Virus record (IMG/VR): IMGVR_UViG_3300000301_000004
Strand: one strand, 5' to 3'
Source of the DNA: an uncultured virus (IMG/VR IMGVR_UViG_3300000301_000004)
Lineage: Duplodnaviria; Heunggongvirae; Uroviricota; Caudoviricetes
Length of the DNA stretch: 20,000 bases
Shown here: positions 13,163-19,999 of the stretch, piece by piece
How the letters are laid out: each line of letters starts with the position of its first letter
Position numbering within the stretch: position 1 is the first letter of the stretch
The notes under the pieces: model-generated
The model's database searches: none
Told to the model about the DNA's origin: nothing
The model's input: the letters and a program-made list of their open reading frames with translations, nothing else
Made by a program: the position numbers and the translations under genes

Positions 13163-14325
13163 ATGTTTTAAGCGAATATCTGCAAAAATATACTTATGAT
13201 TATATTTTAACGGAAGCATTAAGCAAAGTTCCGGATAATGTTGATAAACGAGAAGGTTCGATTATTCGGGATGCTTTATCACCATGTTGTTACGAAGCCG
13301 CAAAACACATATTATATTTAGCTGATATTATCGAACAAACATATATCGAAACTGCAAATGGATTATGGCTTGATGGGCGTGTGATAGAAGGGGGTGTAAC
13401 TCGAGATCCCGCAACCTATGCTAAAAAATTAGGAGTATTTAAAACACAGCTGGATGAACCTTGTCAAATTTCTATTGGACAATCTTTTTCAACCGTTGGA
13501 GATACTATTTTAAATTATACCGCAGTACAGGTATATGTAAATGAAGATGGGGATGTAGTACCCGGAAGTTATATTATGCAATGCAATACTGTTGGCAGCG
13601 TGGGAAATAGTTATATAGGTAGAATCGTTCCTAATGATTATATTGAAAAGTTGGCAAGTGCTGAAATTACTACTTTACTTTATCCAGGAGAAGAAGAAGA
13701 ATCAGATGATTCTCTAAGAGAAAGATTTTTAGCTAATTTAATGAAAACAGCCTTTGGCGGTAATATTGCACAGTATCGGCAATGGGCTAAAGAAATTCCA
13801 GGCATTGGTGGTGTTCAAGTTTATCCTGTATGGGCAGGCGGAGGAACTGTAAAGTTAAGTATTATTGATACAGATTACAATTCTTGTTCTTCAGAATTTT
13901 GTCAAACTATTTTAGAAAAATTCGATCCGGAAAATTCTGGCGGGGAAACTGGATTAGGTTTAGGCATTGCTCCTATTGGCCATAAGGTAACAGTAAGCAC
14001 TCCATTACCTAGAACAATTAATGTATCCGGAAAAATCACATTATTGCCAGGATATAAATTAGAAACACTTTTGCCACAAATCAAATTGGCATTAGAAGAA
14101 TATCTTTTATCGTTAAGACAGGCTTGGGAAAATAGTGATGATGAAAATAATTACTCTGTAATTGTTTATCTTGGCAGAATTAATTTTGCAATTTTAAATG
14201 TTAAAGGTGTATCCAGTGCTTACGAGTTACAATTAAATGGAACTGATACCGATATTAGATTAACAGAAACGAGTTCTTTGCAGGAAATCCCTGTATTAGG
14301 GACGGTGAGTTTAGATGAACAATAG
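13159..14325 (+). CDS. Baseplate J-like protein (XkdT)
   Basis: DKREGSII.DAL.P, E.DD.LR.R, FGGN.AQY, V.PVW.GGGTVK and APIGH.VTV motifs. Confidence 0.93.
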   Translation: MNVLSEYLQKYTYDYILTEALSKVPDNVDKREGSIIRDALSPCCYEAAKHILYLADIIEQTYIETANGLWLDGRVIEGGVTRDPATYAKKLGVFKTQLDEPCQISIGQSFSTVGDTILNYTAVQVYVNEDGDVVPGSYIMQCNTVGSVGNSYIGRIVPNDYIEKLASAEITTLLYPGEEEESDDSLRERFLANLMKTAFGGNIAQYRQWAKEIPGIGGVQVYPVWAGGGTVKLSIIDTDYNSCSSEFCQTILEKFDPENSGGETGLGLGIAPIGHKVTVSTPLPRTINVSGKITLLPGYKLETLLPQIKLALEEYLLSLRQAWENSDDENNYSVIVYLGRINFAILNVKGVSSAYELQLNGTDTDIRLTETSSLQEIPVLGTVSLDEQ

Positions 14326-15232
14326 GTATGGTTTATACAGAACTAGAATTGGTCGTTATTTTCCTCGTTATTATGAAGGTATTTTAGAAACAGATGAATT
14401 AATTAAAGTTGAAAATGATATTTGGAATAACTTATATTTGTTATTAAATAAAGCAAAAAATAATCAATTTATTGCATACGCAGATGAAGATGGTATTTAT
14501 GCTTATGAACAATTATTCCAAATAGTTGCAGACCCTGAAACAGAAACATTGGAAGAAAGAAGATTTAGATTATTAAATAGGATACAAACATTATCTTATT
14601 ATACAATGATATATCTTCGGCAAAAATTAAATTCATTGTTTGGGGAAAATAATTATGAAGTAGAAATGGATTATTTGAACTATACTTTATATGTTAAAAG
14701 TAATGCTTCTAATTCTTTTATTTATAAGGAAAGTATTGCTACTATAAATAAAATAAAACCTGCAAACATTGTATTTATCAATGTTCCATTTATTCCAACT
14801 ACTATTGAAGTTGGCGAAGAAATTTATCAACAAAAATGGTGGTGGAATTATATTTTAGGTGGTAAATGGCGAGTAGGCCAAAAACCTTTTATAAGTGTTC
14901 AAGATTTATCAAAATTAAAATCCGAGGAGGTGCAATCATTGACTCCGTTAATGCTTAACAAATTAAAAACATTTACAGGGGAAGAAATAAAGGCAGTCCT
15001 TATAAATGATACTTATAAGATAACAACTTTTGTTCAAAAAATTATCACAGGTGGGTATTTAAGGATTCAATATAATGTTGAAAACTGGGAGCAAATACAA
15101 CTAATCACCAATATTAAATTTTTAGATGAGGATGATTTAATATTATCAAACGACCCTGTCTATATTCCTATTTCTTCAGATACTATGATTGAACATCGAA
15201 TTAACATTCGGGAGGTTGGAACAAATGGCTAA
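14315..15232 (+). CDS. XkdU/YmfQ (DUF2313)-like baseplate protein with a C-terminal extension
   Basis: NQF...AD..G...YE, ETLEERRFR.L and KPAN motifs in the first ~160 aa, then an additional C-terminal region. Confidence 0.82.
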   Translation: MNNRYGLYRTRIGRYFPRYYEGILETDELIKVENDIWNNLYLLLNKAKNNQFIAYADEDGIYAYEQLFQIVADPETETLEERRFRLLNRIQTLSYYTMIYLRQKLNSLFGENNYEVEMDYLNYTLYVKSNASNSFIYKESIATINKIKPANIVFINVPFIPTTIEVGEEIYQQKWWWNYILGGKWRVGQKPFISVQDLSKLKSEEVQSLTPLMLNKLKTFTGEEIKAVLINDTYKITTFVQKIITGGYLRIQYNVENWEQIQLITNIKFLDEDDLILSNDPVYIPISSDTMIEHRINIREVGTNG

Positions 15233-16136
15233 TAATATTGTTATGAAAATTACTGATTATATCGCTCATTTATGGCATGACACAGATAACGACATTGTAA
15301 TGGCTGAAAATGTTAATGGTTGGGAAAATACATTGCAACAGCATGCAGAATTTTTAAAAAGATTTTCTTGGCAACCGAATACACCATATCCTAAAAATTC
15401 TGTGTTACTTTATCCTTTTGGATTGCATACTAAATTAGTATCTAAAAATGCTGGTACAAGTGGAAGTAATGAACCAACATGGTCGGAAGCAAGTGGACAA
15501 GAAGGTTCCAGAACGATAACAGATAATGATATTATTTGGGAAGAACAACCAATTCAAGTATCTGCAGATACTACACCAATAGGAACGATTAAACAGCAAT
15601 TATGGAATAGCGCTCCTCCAGGATACTTAAAAATGACACAAAGTCATGTATTAAATAGATCAGAATATCCAGAATTGTGGGATTTTGTTCAAAAATATTA
15701 TCCTTTAACTTCTGAAGTTGAATGGCAAAAAATGTTAACATTAAATAAAACTTCTGTTGGCTATTTTTCAACTGGTGATGACAGTACAACTTTTAGAACT
15801 CCATTTATATTAGATTTTGGTCGTGGTGGAGAAAATGCTGGTTCTTTCTTTAAAGATCAGAATAAGCTCCATAACCATACGGCTAATATAAATACTACTC
15901 CAGCGCAAGGTTCTTTCCGTACTTGGAAGTTTGATCCAGTAGCTTCCGGAGTATTTTCATCTACCTATTTAGGACGATGGGCAAACAGCAAAAATGGTGG
16001 AGATGATGCCATGTGGCAAGTTAACTTTAATTTAGCAAATACATTAAATAATATTACTATTGGAAATTCTGGAGAATCTGAAGGATTTCCAAAACACGTT
16101 ATAATGCCTTATTACCTGAGAGTTTTAAATATTTAA
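15225..16136 (+). CDS. Tail fibre protein with tail-collar domain and switchable C-terminal tip (current orientation, 303 aa)
   Basis: ATG 15225 behind GGAGG. Collar-like PIGTI...PPGYL...R.EYPELW...FSTGDDSTTFR.P, then DQNK.H.H...PKHV..PYY tip. Contains the left inverted repeat. Confidence 0.85.
   Translation: MANNIVMKITDYIAHLWHDTDNDIVMAENVNGWENTLQQHAEFLKRFSWQPNTPYPKNSVLLYPFGLHTKLVSKNAGTSGSNEPTWSEASGQEGSRTITDNDIIWEEQPIQVSADTTPIGTIKQQLWNSAPPGYLKMTQSHVLNRSEYPELWDFVQKYYPLTSEVEWQKMLTLNKTSVGYFSTGDDSTTFRTPFILDFGRGGENAGSFFKDQNKLHNHTANINTTPAQGSFRTWKFDPVASGVFSSTYLGRWANSKNGGDDAMWQVNFNLANTLNNITIGNSGESEGFPKHVIMPYYLRVLNI
15844..15879 (+). repeat. Left 36-bp inverted repeat (putative inversion site)
   Basis: CTTTCTTTAAAGATCAGAATAAGCTCCATAACCATA is the exact reverse complement of 16409-16444. 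Confidence 0.95.
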
Positions 16137-16408
16137 TATTCTTAAATAATATGGCATAATTATATGCTTTGGATAAGCTTCTTCTCCACCTGTATTCACG
16201 CCTGTAGATTCAATTTTAATATCATGATTATGGTCGCCATTAAATTGTATAACTTCACGAGTATCACTTTTATGAGCGCATTCGCCAGCCCATGTACCAG
16301 TTCCAGAAAATACACCAGTTGTTCGACCCCAACTGCCCCCAACCTGATTTCCCGCAATGAAAGTTCCTCGAAGTCGTGTAGTTCCAGTCTTATTTCCAGT
16401 GGCCAAAT
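16125..16408 (-). CDS. Silent alternative tail-fibre C-terminal cassette (expressed only after inversion)
   Basis: In frame with the repeat-encoded FFKDQNKLHNH. Ends GGEEAYPKHIIMPYYLRILNI versus GESEGFPKHVIMPYYLRVLNI in the expressed tip. No evident RBS of its own. Confidence 0.88.
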
Positions 16409-16444
16409 TATGGTTATGGAGCTTATTCTGATCTTTAAAGAAAG
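16409..16444 (-). repeat. Right 36-bp inverted repeat (putative inversion site)
   Basis: TATGGTTATGGAGCTTATTCTGATCTTTAAAGAAAG; its outer end overlaps the AAAGGA RBS of the next gene. Confidence 0.95.
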
Positions 16445-16453
16445 GAATTAAAA

Positions 16454-17629
16454 ATGATAAAATTTAGAATATTTAAACAAAGATTGAGTTATTATGGAGA
16501 TTCTGAAGTTGTTGCAGATAGTAAGGGTTATTTAACATTTACACTTGAAACCTCTGAAGATTGGGCTAATTATGTAGGTAAGACAGTGCAATTTACCAAG
16601 AATGGAAAAACTTACAATGTAACCAACATTTCAGATGGCGTAGAATATCCAGTACCGTGGGAAGTTTTAGTTGGTGCAGGAATAATGCAGGTAAATGCTT
16701 TTGCCGTATCTATGGATAACAAAAGAGCAACAACTAATGAAATCGATATAGAAATTATTGATAGTGGGTTTAATGAGGATAGTCTACTTCCTGAAGATCC
16801 TACTCCGGATATATTTGAACAATATGTTCAACAAGTTCAGGAAAATGCAGATAAAGCTGTTAAAGCGGCTGATGAAGCTAAAAAGGCACAAGAAGCCTCC
16901 CAAAATATTAAAAATCAGATTGATGTAATTTATCAAAATGTTAAAGATGTTAAATCAGATATAGAAGATTTACTTCATCAAGTTCAGGAATCAACAAATA
17001 CAGCTTATCAATATGCAGAAGCGGCTAAAACTTCCGCAGAGGCGGCTAGTAAGTCAGAAACAGAAGCTGGACGTTATGCTGGTGAATCTAAAATATATTC
17101 ACAAAATGCTAAACAATCTGAAACAAATGCTAAACAATCTGAAACAAATGCTAAATTGTCAGAGGAAAACTCTAAATTAAATGCAGATAAAACACAAGCT
17201 AATACAGAAATAGTATTAAGCACCAAAGAAAGTATTGATACTATTTATGCCGATATTCAAGATCGACAAAAGGTTATTGAAGATTTAAATACTAATGTTA
17301 ACAATAAAGCAGAACAAATAAATATTCAATATAGTCAAATTGAAGAATGGTATAATGGATTTTTACAAGCCGCATCTTATTTGATTTTTACAGATGAAGT
17401 TAGCGAAGATTTATGGGCTTTAGAAGAAGATGATTATGTATTAACTTTAGAAACTTCAGGAAAAGCTATATTAAATATTCAAATATTAGAAAATGGTTTG
17501 TATACAAGAACTCCTTTTGTTGATATGGAATTTCCAAATGATTTAAGTGTTAAGCTTCGTTCTATTGCTCCCTTTGCTGGAAGGTTGTGCCTTTACGATT
17601 TAATGAAAGGTAGTGAAACTAATGTTTGA
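16454..17629 (+). CDS. BppU-like / coiled-coil tail appendage protein
   Basis: N-terminal beta-rich domain (F...EDW, VPWEVL, TTN, DPTPDIFEQ) followed by a long Ala/Glu/Lys coiled coil with NAKQSET heptads. Confidence 0.6.
   Translation: MIKFRIFKQRLSYYGDSEVVADSKGYLTFTLETSEDWANYVGKTVQFTKNGKTYNVTNISDGVEYPVPWEVLVGAGIMQVNAFAVSMDNKRATTNEIDIEIIDSGFNEDSLLPEDPTPDIFEQYVQQVQENADKAVKAADEAKKAQEASQNIKNQIDVIYQNVKDVKSDIEDLLHQVQESTNTAYQYAEAAKTSAEAASKSETEAGRYAGESKIYSQNAKQSETNAKQSETNAKLSEENSKLNADKTQANTEIVLSTKESIDTIYADIQDRQKVIEDLNTNVNNKAEQINIQYSQIEEWYNGFLQAASYLIFTDEVSEDLWALEEDDYVLTLETSGKAILNIQILENGLYTRTPFVDMEFPNDLSVKLRSIAPFAGRLCLYDLMKGSETNV
17104..17155 (+). repeat. 21-bp tandem repeat, about 2.5 copies (NAKQSET)
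   Basis: AAATGCTAAACAATCTGAAAC twice, then AAATGCTAAA. Confidence 0.9.
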
Positions 17630-18173
17630 GCATATAACTAAAGTTTTGACTGGATTAAAATTGATAAAATTTATTAATTCTTTAATTGATTTAATAAATA
17701 GTCATTTATCTAATTATAATAATCCGCATAAAGTAACAGCCGAACAGTTAGGTTTATCCAATGCTTATAAATACAAAGGAAGTGTTCCAACTTATCAAGA
17801 TTTACCTTCTACAGCAGAAAGTGGAGATGTATATAATGTTGTGAAAGGTGATAAAGAGATAGGTGTTGCAGATGGAGCAAATTTCGCTTGGAATGGTTCA
17901 GAATGGGATAACCTTGGCGGGCTATTAACTGGAACAGGTGCAATTAGAGTTGAATTTATGGTTATAAGCTGGCAAGAGGACACATCTACAGGTTTGTATA
18001 AACTACCATTAAATATTTTTGAACAAGTGGATAGTGTTGGTGTTTTAAGCGTAGAAGCCATTGAAAATGGTCAAAGGCATAGTGTGTTGTTAGATACGAT
18101 TGGAAATGATTTAATTTCTATGAATGCTTTTGACGGCGCAATTTATTATACTACGTTCAGGGAGGTTTCCTAA
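17622..18173 (+). CDS. Tail fibre-associated structural protein
   Basis: H...NNPHKVTAEQLGL and YKGSV.T..DLP.....GDVYNV...W.G.EWD.LGG motifs common in tail fibre proteins. Start is GTG 17613 or ATG 17622. Confidence 0.65.
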   Translation: MFEHITKVLTGLKLIKFINSLIDLINSHLSNYNNPHKVTAEQLGLSNAYKYKGSVPTYQDLPSTAESGDVYNVVKGDKEIGVADGANFAWNGSEWDNLGGLLTGTGAIRVEFMVISWQEDTSTGLYKLPLNIFEQVDSVGVLSVEAIENGQRHSVLLDTIGNDLISMNAFDGAIYYTTFREVS

Positions 18174-19999
18174 TGCAAAAAATTGATAAGCAGCAAAATG
18201 TTACAGTGCAGAATATTCTTCGTTGTTTAAATGAATTAAATGATGAAAATATGGTGTATGTAGGTTCACAACCGCCAACGGAAACAAAAAAAGGATTAAT
18301 ATGGATTAATCCAGAGGAATTATCACAAGAGCCAGAAGTTCGTTATGTTGGGCATATGGTCGGAGATATTTATCCTATCAGTTATACAGAACTTGAAGAA
18401 GGTCAAATCATATTAAGTGGTCAATTGGTTAGTCGTCAAGTATATCAAGTTCTTTGGAATTGGGTAGAAAAGCATCCTAGCTTACTAAAAACAGAGCAAG
18501 AATGGAATGAATATTTTAATAATACGAATGGACTATGTTGCCCTTATTTCAGCTATGGGACAAATGATACTAATTTTAGACTTCCAAATTATTCTGGAGT
18601 ATTTATTAGAGCCGATTCTGATATAACTAAAATTAATCAATTTAGTGAAGATACACAAAGAAATATTCTTGGACAATTTGCAACTTTTCGAACAAGTTGG
18701 GATGATAGTACTGGAGAATTACTTTTTAATGCAAATGGGGCTTTTAAAAAAATAGAATCTGGTAATAATATGGACAGTATTCATCAGGATTCCTCAGACA
18801 GACAACAGCAAATTGTAGATTTTGATGCCTCTCGTTCAGTAGGCATAGAGCACACTGGCGAAGAAGTAAAACCTAAATCAATAAATCAAATATGGGTTAT
18901 TCAAGCTGTAGGAGTAATAACAAATGCCTCTAATTTGGATATTAGTCAATTAGAAGAAGCAATTCAACAATTAACTAATTATAGTAATTATGAAGTTGCC
19001 TGCATTAAAAATAATCCAAATTATTATAATCGTGATGAATTATTTACTACAAATAAAACAACAGTAACAATTCCAAAAGATTTAAAAATCAATATTAATG
19101 GAAATTGTTATATTAGTACAATTAATAAATCTTTACAATTATCTACAGTAGATATTCCAGCTAATTTAGCAGGTAAAGATGTTTATATTTATGCTTGTGA
19201 ACCAACTTCAGGAACAGAGCCTATTTTCGTATTATCTTTAAATAGTACAGTCCCAACAGGTTACACAGCTAATAATAGCCGTAAAATAGGTGGATTTCAT
19301 TGTTTGTGTAAAGATGTTGGAGTTATAGAAGGGCATACGTTATCTGGATATGTTACCGGAGATATATTACCAGCAACAAGATGGGATTTACTACATAGAC
19401 CAAAAGGAGAACCTGAAGGATTCGCTTATGAAGAATTAACAGATTGTTGGATTGGAATTTATCTGCCAAGTTGGGACGGAACTAAATTAGTCAGTGTTTA
19501 TAATGGAGTTATTGCTGATGGAACTTCGACTAAAAAATGGCATGGTGAAGCCTTTTATGAGCAATTTGCAAAACAAGGAATGCGTTTAGTTTGGCGGCAC
19601 GAATTTCAAATGGGGGCAAAAGGTTCTAATGAACAAACAAATATTCAAGGTTCTTCTGATCCTAATACTACAGGTGGGCATGTAGATACGGCGGGAAGAA
19701 GAATGATTAGTAATATAGGATTAGAAGATTGTTGCGGTGTATTATGGCAATTTGCAATGGATTTAGGCTTTGCAGGCGGGTCTGGTTGGACAAATTCTGT
19801 TTATAACTCTTCTGTAGACGATAGAAGTTATGGACAAACATACGGAACACTTTATCGCTTGCTTTTGGGCGCTCGCTGGAATGGCGGCGGTTCTTCGGGT
19901 TCGCGTTCTGCTTTTTGCGATATTTCGTCGGCTTCTGTGTATGTCGATCGCTCTGCGCGCGGCGCGTCGGAGCCGAAAACGGTTAAAGGATTAAACTAA
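18173..19999 (+). CDS. Tail fibre / receptor-binding protein: tail-collar module fused to an Mtd-like C-type-lectin-fold domain; likely DGR target
   Basis: GGAGG RBS. N-terminal collar motif, then SRKIGGFH, ILP...WDL.HRP, GRRMIS.IG.EDCCG..WQ and terminal LLGARW....SGSRS..C............ARGASEP. Confidence 0.85.
   Translation: MQKIDKQQNVTVQNILRCLNELNDENMVYVGSQPPTETKKGLIWINPEELSQEPEVRYVGHMVGDIYPISYTELEEGQIILSGQLVSRQVYQVLWNWVEKHPSLLKTEQEWNEYFNNTNGLCCPYFSYGTNDTNFRLPNYSGVFIRADSDITKINQFSEDTQRNILGQFATFRTSWDDSTGELLFNANGAFKKIESGNNMDSIHQDSSDRQQQIVDFDASRSVGIEHTGEEVKPKSINQIWVIQAVGVITNASNLDISQLEEAIQQLTNYSNYEVACIKNNPNYYNRDELFTTNKTTVTIPKDLKININGNCYISTINKSLQLSTVDIPANLAGKDVYIYACEPTSGTEPIFVLSLNSTVPTGYTANNSRKIGGFHCLCKDVGVIEGHTLSGYVTGDILPATRWDLLHRPKGEPEGFAYEELTDCWIGIYLPSWDGTKLVSVYNGVIADGTSTKKWHGEAFYEQFAKQGMRLVWRHEFQMGAKGSNEQTNIQGSSDPNTTGGHVDTAGRRMISNIGLEDCCGVLWQFAMDLGFAGGSGWTNSVYNSSVDDRSYGQTYGTLYRLLLGARWNGGGSSGSRSAFCDISSASVYVDRSARGASEPKTVKGLN
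19850..19975 (+). other. Putative DGR variable repeat (VR) with a GC-rich IMH-like 3' element
   Basis: Only 8 A in 126 nt within an A-rich gene; 42 consecutive codons with no third-position A; G/C-only run GCGCGCGGCGCG at 19955-19966. Confidence 0.78.

Follow-up and report, generated by a model that had tools for sequence, protein, structure and literature searches.

In the phage group represented by the window (the whole 20,000-nucleotide stretch of DNA analysed here), comparison with related records confirms two routes of fibre variation: the tip of one fibre (fibre 1) is switched by inversion of a short cassette, and the end of a second (fibre 2) is mutated by a DGR. Taken jointly, these two steps are very probable; the whole explanation, in which they form two independent host-range modules and the flip needs no invertase, is one towards which we lean more cautiously.

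The source is an uncultured gut myophage of about 65 kb, very common, with a host probably among the Bacillota; its major capsid sequence is present on at least 1000 contigs, and the atlas taxa for the host are Bacillota or viruses. Negativicutes, suggested by holin and spanin-like genes, is a guess at the host, and Terrisporobacter was rejected as it rested on a single MAG label judged untrustworthy. Among GenBank phages no nucleotide match to the window was found, and two queries of the GTDB genomes turned up no prophage. The two fibre genes had been described as lying in one operon, two genes apart, and the layout agrees: exactly two ORFs, of 391 and 186 aa, intervene and all lie on the + strand. 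Promoter and terminator scans of 15000-18300 scored at or below chance. A Mu gp48-like baseplate gene (14315..15232, +; PF10076, E 1e-17) lies directly 5' of fibre 1 (15225..16136, +; 303 aa), which therefore occupies the tail-fibre slot. Then follow the 391-aa protein (16454..17629, +), with a low-complexity centre and weak matches to tail-fibre families, the 186-aa protein (17613..18173, +), with weak matches to tail/virion families and a gene that co-travels with the Mtd gene, and fibre 2 (18173..19999, +; 608 aa), the DGR target, in which a collar-tip module is fused to an Mtd-like C-terminal half.

Fibre 1 consists of a constant N-terminus and collar (aa 1-207) followed by tip A, and its PHROG matches are to tail and tail-fibre families. 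The profile built from its alignment matches the solved tail fibres 8hqz, 9cuy, 2xgf and 1ocy (E 2e-38 to 3e-4), and in these matches it resembles the tail collar fibres, that is, the T4 gp12 and gp37 tips, the L-shaped fibre of 8hqz and the short fibre of 9cuy. PF07484 (Collar) was found in 42/74 aligned homologues; the window's fibre 1 on its own falls below Pfam detection of Collar, and the collar-then-tip order is seen through homologues and the profile. The single-sequence model of the fibre reached a pLDDT of 31 and the alignment-based model 84; with the latter, the top Foldseek rows were fibres, none of them significant (no match under E 0.001, best E 0.039). Gene position and family hits suggest that both fibres are part of the virion and may use different receptors, and tips A and B would presumably bind different receptors as well. 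Among the 120 best protein hits, 108 carry the commonest fibre 1 allele, which has a fixed third tip without repeats.

The cassette is bounded by a 36-bp perfect inverted repeat, whereas the longest one to arise when the window was triplet-shuffled 30 times was 20 bp. The left arm (15844-15879, +) lies in frame within the ORF at 15225-16136 and encodes 11 residues, the last of them an H-x-H motif, and the outer end of the right arm (16409-16444, -) extends into what is probably the ribosome-binding site for the gene that follows. Between them, the 529-bp invertible segment (15880..16408) holds two tips placed tail to tail: tip A (15846..16136, +), 96 aa from the repeat and in the expressed orientation, and tip B (16125..16442, -), 105 aa, which is silent in the window and has no start codon at the repeat. 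Tip B is 42% identical to tip A and has the same reading frame from the repeat. The two tips share their final codons and stops in a 12-bp palindrome (16125..16136), itself the centre of a 72-nt imperfect palindrome (71%). Recombination between the arms would flip the 529 bp and, with the reading frame kept, exchange the 85-94 C-terminal residues of fibre 1, so that in orientation B tip B is joined in frame to give a 312-aa protein. Both tips are stop-free in 8/8 cassettes, a count which leaves out G001, as the cassette of G001/G004 has two mismatches between its arms; G001 is a row of the cassette tree below.

That this fibre tip is invertible, as the preliminary description had proposed, is borne out by relatives that carry the segment the other way round, 98-99% identical and between the same flanks. 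In species 1, eight records are in orientation A (the window, L037, L038, L039, L041, L044, L046 and L047) and five in orientation B (G001/G004, counted once as one strain at 99.9%, G002, G003, L043 and L045), with L042 in neither count; orientations were read from assembled contigs of separate records and not within one clonal population. The sister species (~77% nt) has A' in G011 and B' in G012 and G014. The cassette tree of nine rows contains two starred groups with A and B in each, and a single clade of A is rejected by the AU test (p-AU 0.0003); on these contigs, the cassette is shown to have flipped more than once. In addition, the contig of G013 starts and stops precisely at the full 35-bp arm, and that of L042 does likewise on one side, as expected from an assembly-graph fork. 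It is hardly credible that the 36-bp repeat has misled assembly into producing the two orientations. Contigs built from 31-letter words do break there irrespective of orientation, but the repeat is shorter than the reads and than the word sizes with which common metagenome assemblers finish. Each orientation, moreover, is found in many independent assemblies, and the two fusion proteins form large clusters (661 and 426; 234 and 214 members, partial calls included).

A second cassette, whose 33-36-bp arms show no sequence relation to those of the first (shuffle p 0.95-0.98), also occurs in both orientations, five (L080, L082, L084, L088 and L100) to one (L096). L075 and G011 were considered as opposite orientations of one cassette and set aside, as their partner tips differ. 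The second cassette bears on another reading, in which flipping is rare and A and B are standing alleles under selection, shuffled between strains by recombination during co-infection. Modules do move between strains and species, cassette and DGR being found in all four combinations and L041 carrying the cassette of species 1 with the DGR of species 2, and exchange within the cassette could shift SNPs between orientations and so yield a mixed tree. Nevertheless, we consider this reading improbable, as orientations are mixed in both haplotype groups, in the second species and in the second cassette, contigs end exactly at the arm, and the silent tips are intact.

What drives the flip is a question that the preliminary description did not raise. 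No site-specific recombinase of the phage was found, near-complete genomes included: PF00589 (tyrosine recombinase) gave 0/23 record searches, PF01548 and PF07508 each 0/12, and PF00239 1/27, its sole match lying in G003, a chimeric record with two terminases. This resolvase was rejected as the invertase, being an IS607 TnpA beside TnpB, 38 kb away and in the second phage. A PHROG scan of 65/92 ORFs of G013 (27 not scanned) found UvsX, SSB and two resolvases and no integrase, and RecA/UvsX is encoded in 18/19 records, which is weak evidence because RecA is common in such phages. We propose that the flip could be made by the phage's homologous recombination kit, in which RecA/UvsX, SSB and Holliday-junction resolvases would act on some 35 bp of perfect homology; whether the flip does proceed in this way, and so without a dedicated invertase, we hold to be an even call. 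It is a more tentative suggestion that in this phage family any perfect inverted arm pair of about 35 bp may be flipped by the phage's own RecA/UvsX, and that the cassette may have originated as an inverted duplication of the 3' end.

The main rival, to which we give clearly less weight, is that a site-specific recombinase of the host flips the cassette in trans, as an orphan invertible segment. The arm boundaries are identical across two species, and the arms of the Mu G segment are 34 bp long, both of which count in its favour. Further, part of PMC8987985 describes cross-complementation of Hin, Gin and Cin between host and phage. Against this, dyad symmetry in the arms is not above that of shuffles (p 0.36-0.83, with low power at 35 bp), and synonymous change reached 3/11 arm codons compared with 48/156 codons outside, a background rate of drift with low power from 11 codons; an extra constraint on the arms as DNA was not seen at this low power. 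The three differences between the species in the first-cassette arms are all synonymous and each is present in both arms, and this spread of substitutions to both arms would be easier through heteroduplex formation. Two unrelated arm sequences of equal length, in several phage backbones, also tell against a host enzyme. Even so, such an enzyme is compatible with arms of unrelated sequence, because C. difficile RecV acts on switches whose repeats have no recognisable identity, as set out in the relevant part of PMC5386303.

Flipping by the phage's own recombination, which we prefer to a host enzyme, would set the cassette apart from known systems that it otherwise resembles. As in the Mu G/Gin and P1 C/Cin systems, a constant 5' part is followed by two 3' alternatives, tail to tail within inverted repeats; unlike them, the phage here has no serine invertase that was found and no arm dyad symmetry that was detected, and its segment is only 529 bp, without paired chaperone genes inside. 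These invertible tail-fibre segments have two states, according to a portion of PMC8987985. The Rin shufflon of Bifidobacterium and Eggerthella prophages and the BV01-like shufflon are alike in being systems of gut phages in which C-termini of receptor-binding proteins are swapped by inversion. In the sections of PMC8778435 and PMC13596623 that treat them, they have an adjacent recombinase, core sites of 8-10 bp and several cassettes, whereas here there is one 36-bp arm pair with two states and an adjacent tyrosine recombinase was not found in the 23 record searches.

Fibre 2 begins with a fixed collar-plus-tip module (aa 60-247; 18350..18913, +), a paralogue of residues 114-302 in fibre 1 (E 1.4e-33 with the HMM of alignment A1; 35% in a pairwise comparison over 55 aa). 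Its second Mtd domain (aa 291-405; 19043..19387, +) matches PF21916 (mtd_2nd, E 2e-21), and comparisons with BPP-1 gave E 2e-15 for the Mtd structure 1yu0 and E 3e-12 by tblastn to the mtd gene; the C-terminal half is, on these matches, assigned to the C-type-lectin fold as an Mtd-like DGR target. The earlier claim that the two fibres are paralogous is correct for the collar-plus-tip module but not for the DGR target, the Mtd lectin domain being absent from fibre 1, and because of this absence the two mechanisms act on non-homologous parts.

The 3' end of the fibre 2 gene carries an A-poor variable repeat (VR) of 114 bp (19858..19971, +). As the window ends one base past the fibre 2 stop, the TR, RT and hairpin lie outside it and were read from close relatives, with L003 as the source of the reference TR, which L002 shares unchanged. 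The window VR differs from this TR at 22/29 adenines and 0/85 other bases (Fisher p 9e-18), and when each of 10 records was compared with its own TR, 15-23 of 28-29 adenines and 0-2 of 85-86 other bases were mismatched; all VRs examined differ from one another, at most an indirect sign of retrohoming. With adenine-only changes in the VR, and with relatives that carry TR and RT, the proposal that the VR-bearing fibre is under a DGR is upheld. The RT was full length with YxDD in five of the 10 records, broken in two and cut by the contig end in three. Decay of the DGR is common, as seen in the nonsense codon of L002, the TR/RT deletions of G002 and G005, and the RT of 154 aa in L039.

The arrangement is similar to the BPP-1 DGR of Bordetella (mtd-avd-TR-brt) in its Mtd-homologous target, C-terminal VR, adenine-only variation, TR before RT and hairpin downstream of the VR, with a 10-pair stem in L003 whose outer bases recur in the sister-species stem. 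It differs in that VR and TR are only 152 bp apart in relatives, with avd absent from this spacer, and a 93-aa ORF of unassigned function follows the RT; two small ORFs 3' of the RT had no Pfam match at E 0.1. The target here is, moreover, fused to the collar-tip module, and the host is other than Bordetella. DGRs without avd are known in Faecalibacterium phages, and avd is dispensable for DGR membership, as reported in part of PMC5883640. A DGR of the BPP-1 type without avd between VR and TR would rewrite 14 codons at the end of fibre 2.

The preliminary description also inferred that the phage pairs switch and mutator. The pairing is not obligate, in view of the four combinations of cassette and DGR: the modules often co-occur yet, to judge from the records compared, reassort freely, and are no single coupled machine. 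In Eggerthella, the shufflon and DGRs sit in different prophage clades (passages in PMC8778435 and PMC13596623), and searches of the literature found no paper describing a phage that has the two together. If short perfect homology and phage RecA do suffice for inversion, surveys keyed to an invertase next to a tail gene will overlook a class of host-range switches, and 'orphan' cassettes now taken for dead relics may be active. This phage is abundant enough for the question to be pursued in read sets that already exist, and natural strains with either, both or neither module would allow tests of why a switch and an open-ended mutator have both been kept. A full-length RT with YxDD accompanies both systems in L045, L046, G011, G012 and G013, and G011 combines a DGR with two flip cassettes, unrelated to each other, at a single tail locus.

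The fibre 1 gene (15225-16136; 303 aa) lies directly after a gp48-like baseplate gene and contains, in frame, the left arm (15844-15879) of a 529-bp segment bounded by a perfect 36-bp inverted repeat; the longest repeat in 30 shuffles of the window was 20 bp. The right arm (16409-16444) opens, in the same frame as the left, an alternative C-terminus of 105 aa, and the two tips are 42% identical, with stop codons that overlap inside a 12-bp palindrome. This layout suggests that the cassette arose by an inverted duplication of the 3' third of the fibre 1 gene. A profile of 74 fibre 1 homologues, 42 of which have a Collar domain, matched solved tail fibres (8hqz, E 2e-38; 9cuy, 4e-19; more weakly 2xgf, 4e-6, and 1ocy, 3e-4). 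The crossover site encodes the conserved D-x4-H-x-H motif of fibre 1; in T4 fibre tips the histidines of such a motif bind metal. In the structure model (pLDDT 84) the swapped part holds long strands, and Foldseek gave no match to this model under E 0.001.

Within species 1, comprising the window and close relatives, orientation A was found in eight records (the window, L037, L038, L039, L041, L044, L046 and L047; a single junction is visible in four of these) and orientation B in five (G001/G004, counted once, G002, G003, L043 and L045), while L042 stops at a cassette arm. In the sister species (~77% identity) this cassette recurs, here between 35-bp arms, as A' in G011 and as B' in G012 and G014; both ends of the 64,185-bp sister-species record G013 fall exactly on a full arm. 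On a tree of nine full cassettes, all turned to one orientation, A and B occur within each of the two supported groups and a single clade of A was rejected (p-AU 0.0003). All eight parsed cassettes are free of stops in either tip. Taken together, the mixed orientations on the tree, the sister-species pair and the open tips indicate, from comparison across contigs of different records, that the segment has inverted on more than one occasion.

Searches of the records, among them G013 and G020, both rated complete, turned up no serine, tyrosine, large serine or IS110-type recombinase; the sole match was an IS607 TnpA carried by the second of two phages in G003. At the level of single ORFs, 65 of 92 were scanned in G013 (12 of them again in Pfam) and 98 of 153 in G003, the remainder being mainly structural or replication orthologues. 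G003 itself, 113.9 kb and rated complete, yet with two sets of terminase, capsid and tail genes, is probably two phages joined. UvsX/RecA, SSB, two Holliday-junction resolvases and a Cas4-like nuclease are encoded by G013, and RecA by 18 of 19 records. The cassette arms show synonymous drift at the background rate, yet the two arms stay identical. A second invertible cassette (L075:15591-16344; G011:64531-65229; L078-L101) sits in a tandem family of small genes without assigned function, farther along the tail locus; its arms (33-36 bp) are unrelated in sequence to those of the first. The lack of a recombinase, the RecA kit, the drifting but identical arms and the unrelated second arms fit an inversion driven by homology. 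Alternatively, a host enzyme may flip the cassette, as host and phage invertases have been described to complement each other (PMC8987985) and RecV to work on repeats unrelated to each other (PMC5386303). Bearing on the hypothesis of RecA-dependent, homology-driven inversion, recA is split in two pieces, perhaps by an intron, an intein or a break, in the second-cassette carriers G016, G018, G019, G021, G022, G026 and G027. Both arms of this cassette are present in 10 of 14 records; one type was seen in both orientations, 5 to 1. The cassette has three tips in two pairings and lies on more than one phage backbone. G011 holds the first cassette, the second and the DGR in one record, and may be mosaic or chimeric.

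Fibre 2 (18173-19999; 608 aa), whose C-terminal half is homologous to BPP-1 Mtd, carries the VR at 19858-19971. Against the TR of the related sequence L003, the window VR has mismatches at 22 of 29 adenines and at none of the 85 other bases; in 10 related records the VRs are all different and show 0-2 non-adenine mismatches to their own TR. The template could yield ~1e14 variants over 14 codons. A spacer of 152 bp, which contains a hairpin and no avd, separates VR from TR. The RT is full length in five of the 10 records (L045, L046, G011, G012 and G013), broken in two and cut by a contig end in three. As L046 is so close to the window (97.7% identity over 12 kb, same orientation) and its DGR is intact, an intact DGR likely lies beyond the window's end. 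DGR deletions are present in G002 and G005, and decay recurs at L001:11686-12273, L004:11900 and L002:2326, its forms being VR/TR collapse with RT deletion, deletion of the TR and 5' RT, and a nonsense codon; part of these cases may reflect assembly collapse. A 93-aa ORF (L002:3154-3435) which overlaps the RT stop and is conserved in the sister species is a candidate replacement for Avd; it had no Pfam match, and its atlas lead was to Phi29 SSB-like clusters (0.93; family on 44% of members). In the spacer after the VR, the hairpin loop of L046 is the reverse complement of that in L002 and L003, as would result from an inversion of the palindrome itself.

The pairing of an invertible-tip fibre with a VR-bearing fibre, as first reported in the preliminary description, is thus borne out by the 36-bp repeat with its two tips and by the Mtd-like gene with its VR. 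The two fibres were also held to be paralogous, which applies to the fixed N-terminal collar-tip module of fibre 2 (E 1.4e-33 to fibre 1); the target of the DGR is the Mtd part, for which fibre 1 has no counterpart. A third collar-tip paralogue follows the RT (E 8e-41; L002:3734-5314; L001:12557-14167), its C-terminal half varying between records. The cassette accompanies Mtd in nine species-1 records and another fibre, without Mtd, in four (G003, L043, L044 and L047), while a fixed tip occurs once with Mtd (G005) and once with that other fibre (G006). Among protein hits to fibre 1, the fixed third tip predominates (108 of the best 120 of 221). As the modules reassort and this fixed tip prevails, cassette and DGR are a frequent combination and not a coupled device; of the proposed two-tier system, the signs of activity stand for both parts (flipped copies; adenine-only VR changes) and the coupling does not. 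In L041 the VR, spacer and TR of species 2 are joined to a species-1 cassette, which points to the DGR module having been exchanged across species.

Inversion cassette and DGR are each of a known kind. Both have been described in Eggerthella phages, with shufflon and DGRs in separate clades (PMC8778435), and elsewhere as invertases in P2-like phages and DGRs in Toutatisvirus (10.1101/2024.10.15.618418). No paper reporting the two systems together in a single phage was found in the open literature, covered in part and including PMC13596623, PMC12386605, PMC11792537, PMC5883640, PMC12135933, PMC11923282, PMC10028968 and PMC8042965, although tables of large DGR surveys may already list this DGR; the accessible text of PMC8144416 gave no match to the terms sought. 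What is new is their co-occurrence, each with signs of activity, and chiefly the lack of an invertase.

The window spans, from portal to baseplate, the structural operon of a contractile-tailed phage. Relatives at 97-99% identity occur in IMG/VR and among metagenome contigs, its capsid sequence occurs on at least 1000 contigs, and contigs bearing its proteins mostly reach a maximum of ~65-68 kb. No integrase was found in records of this phage group, nor a prophage copy in GTDB. FolE, QueD, QueC or QueE and a TGT-like gene, at L027:5981-9321 and in L067-L068, probably form a 7-deazaguanine DNA modification pathway. In G001 and G004 a stretch of 66 bp is missing from the N-terminal region of the Mtd gene, and the 391-aa gene of the window contains a short tandem repeat at 17107-17160.
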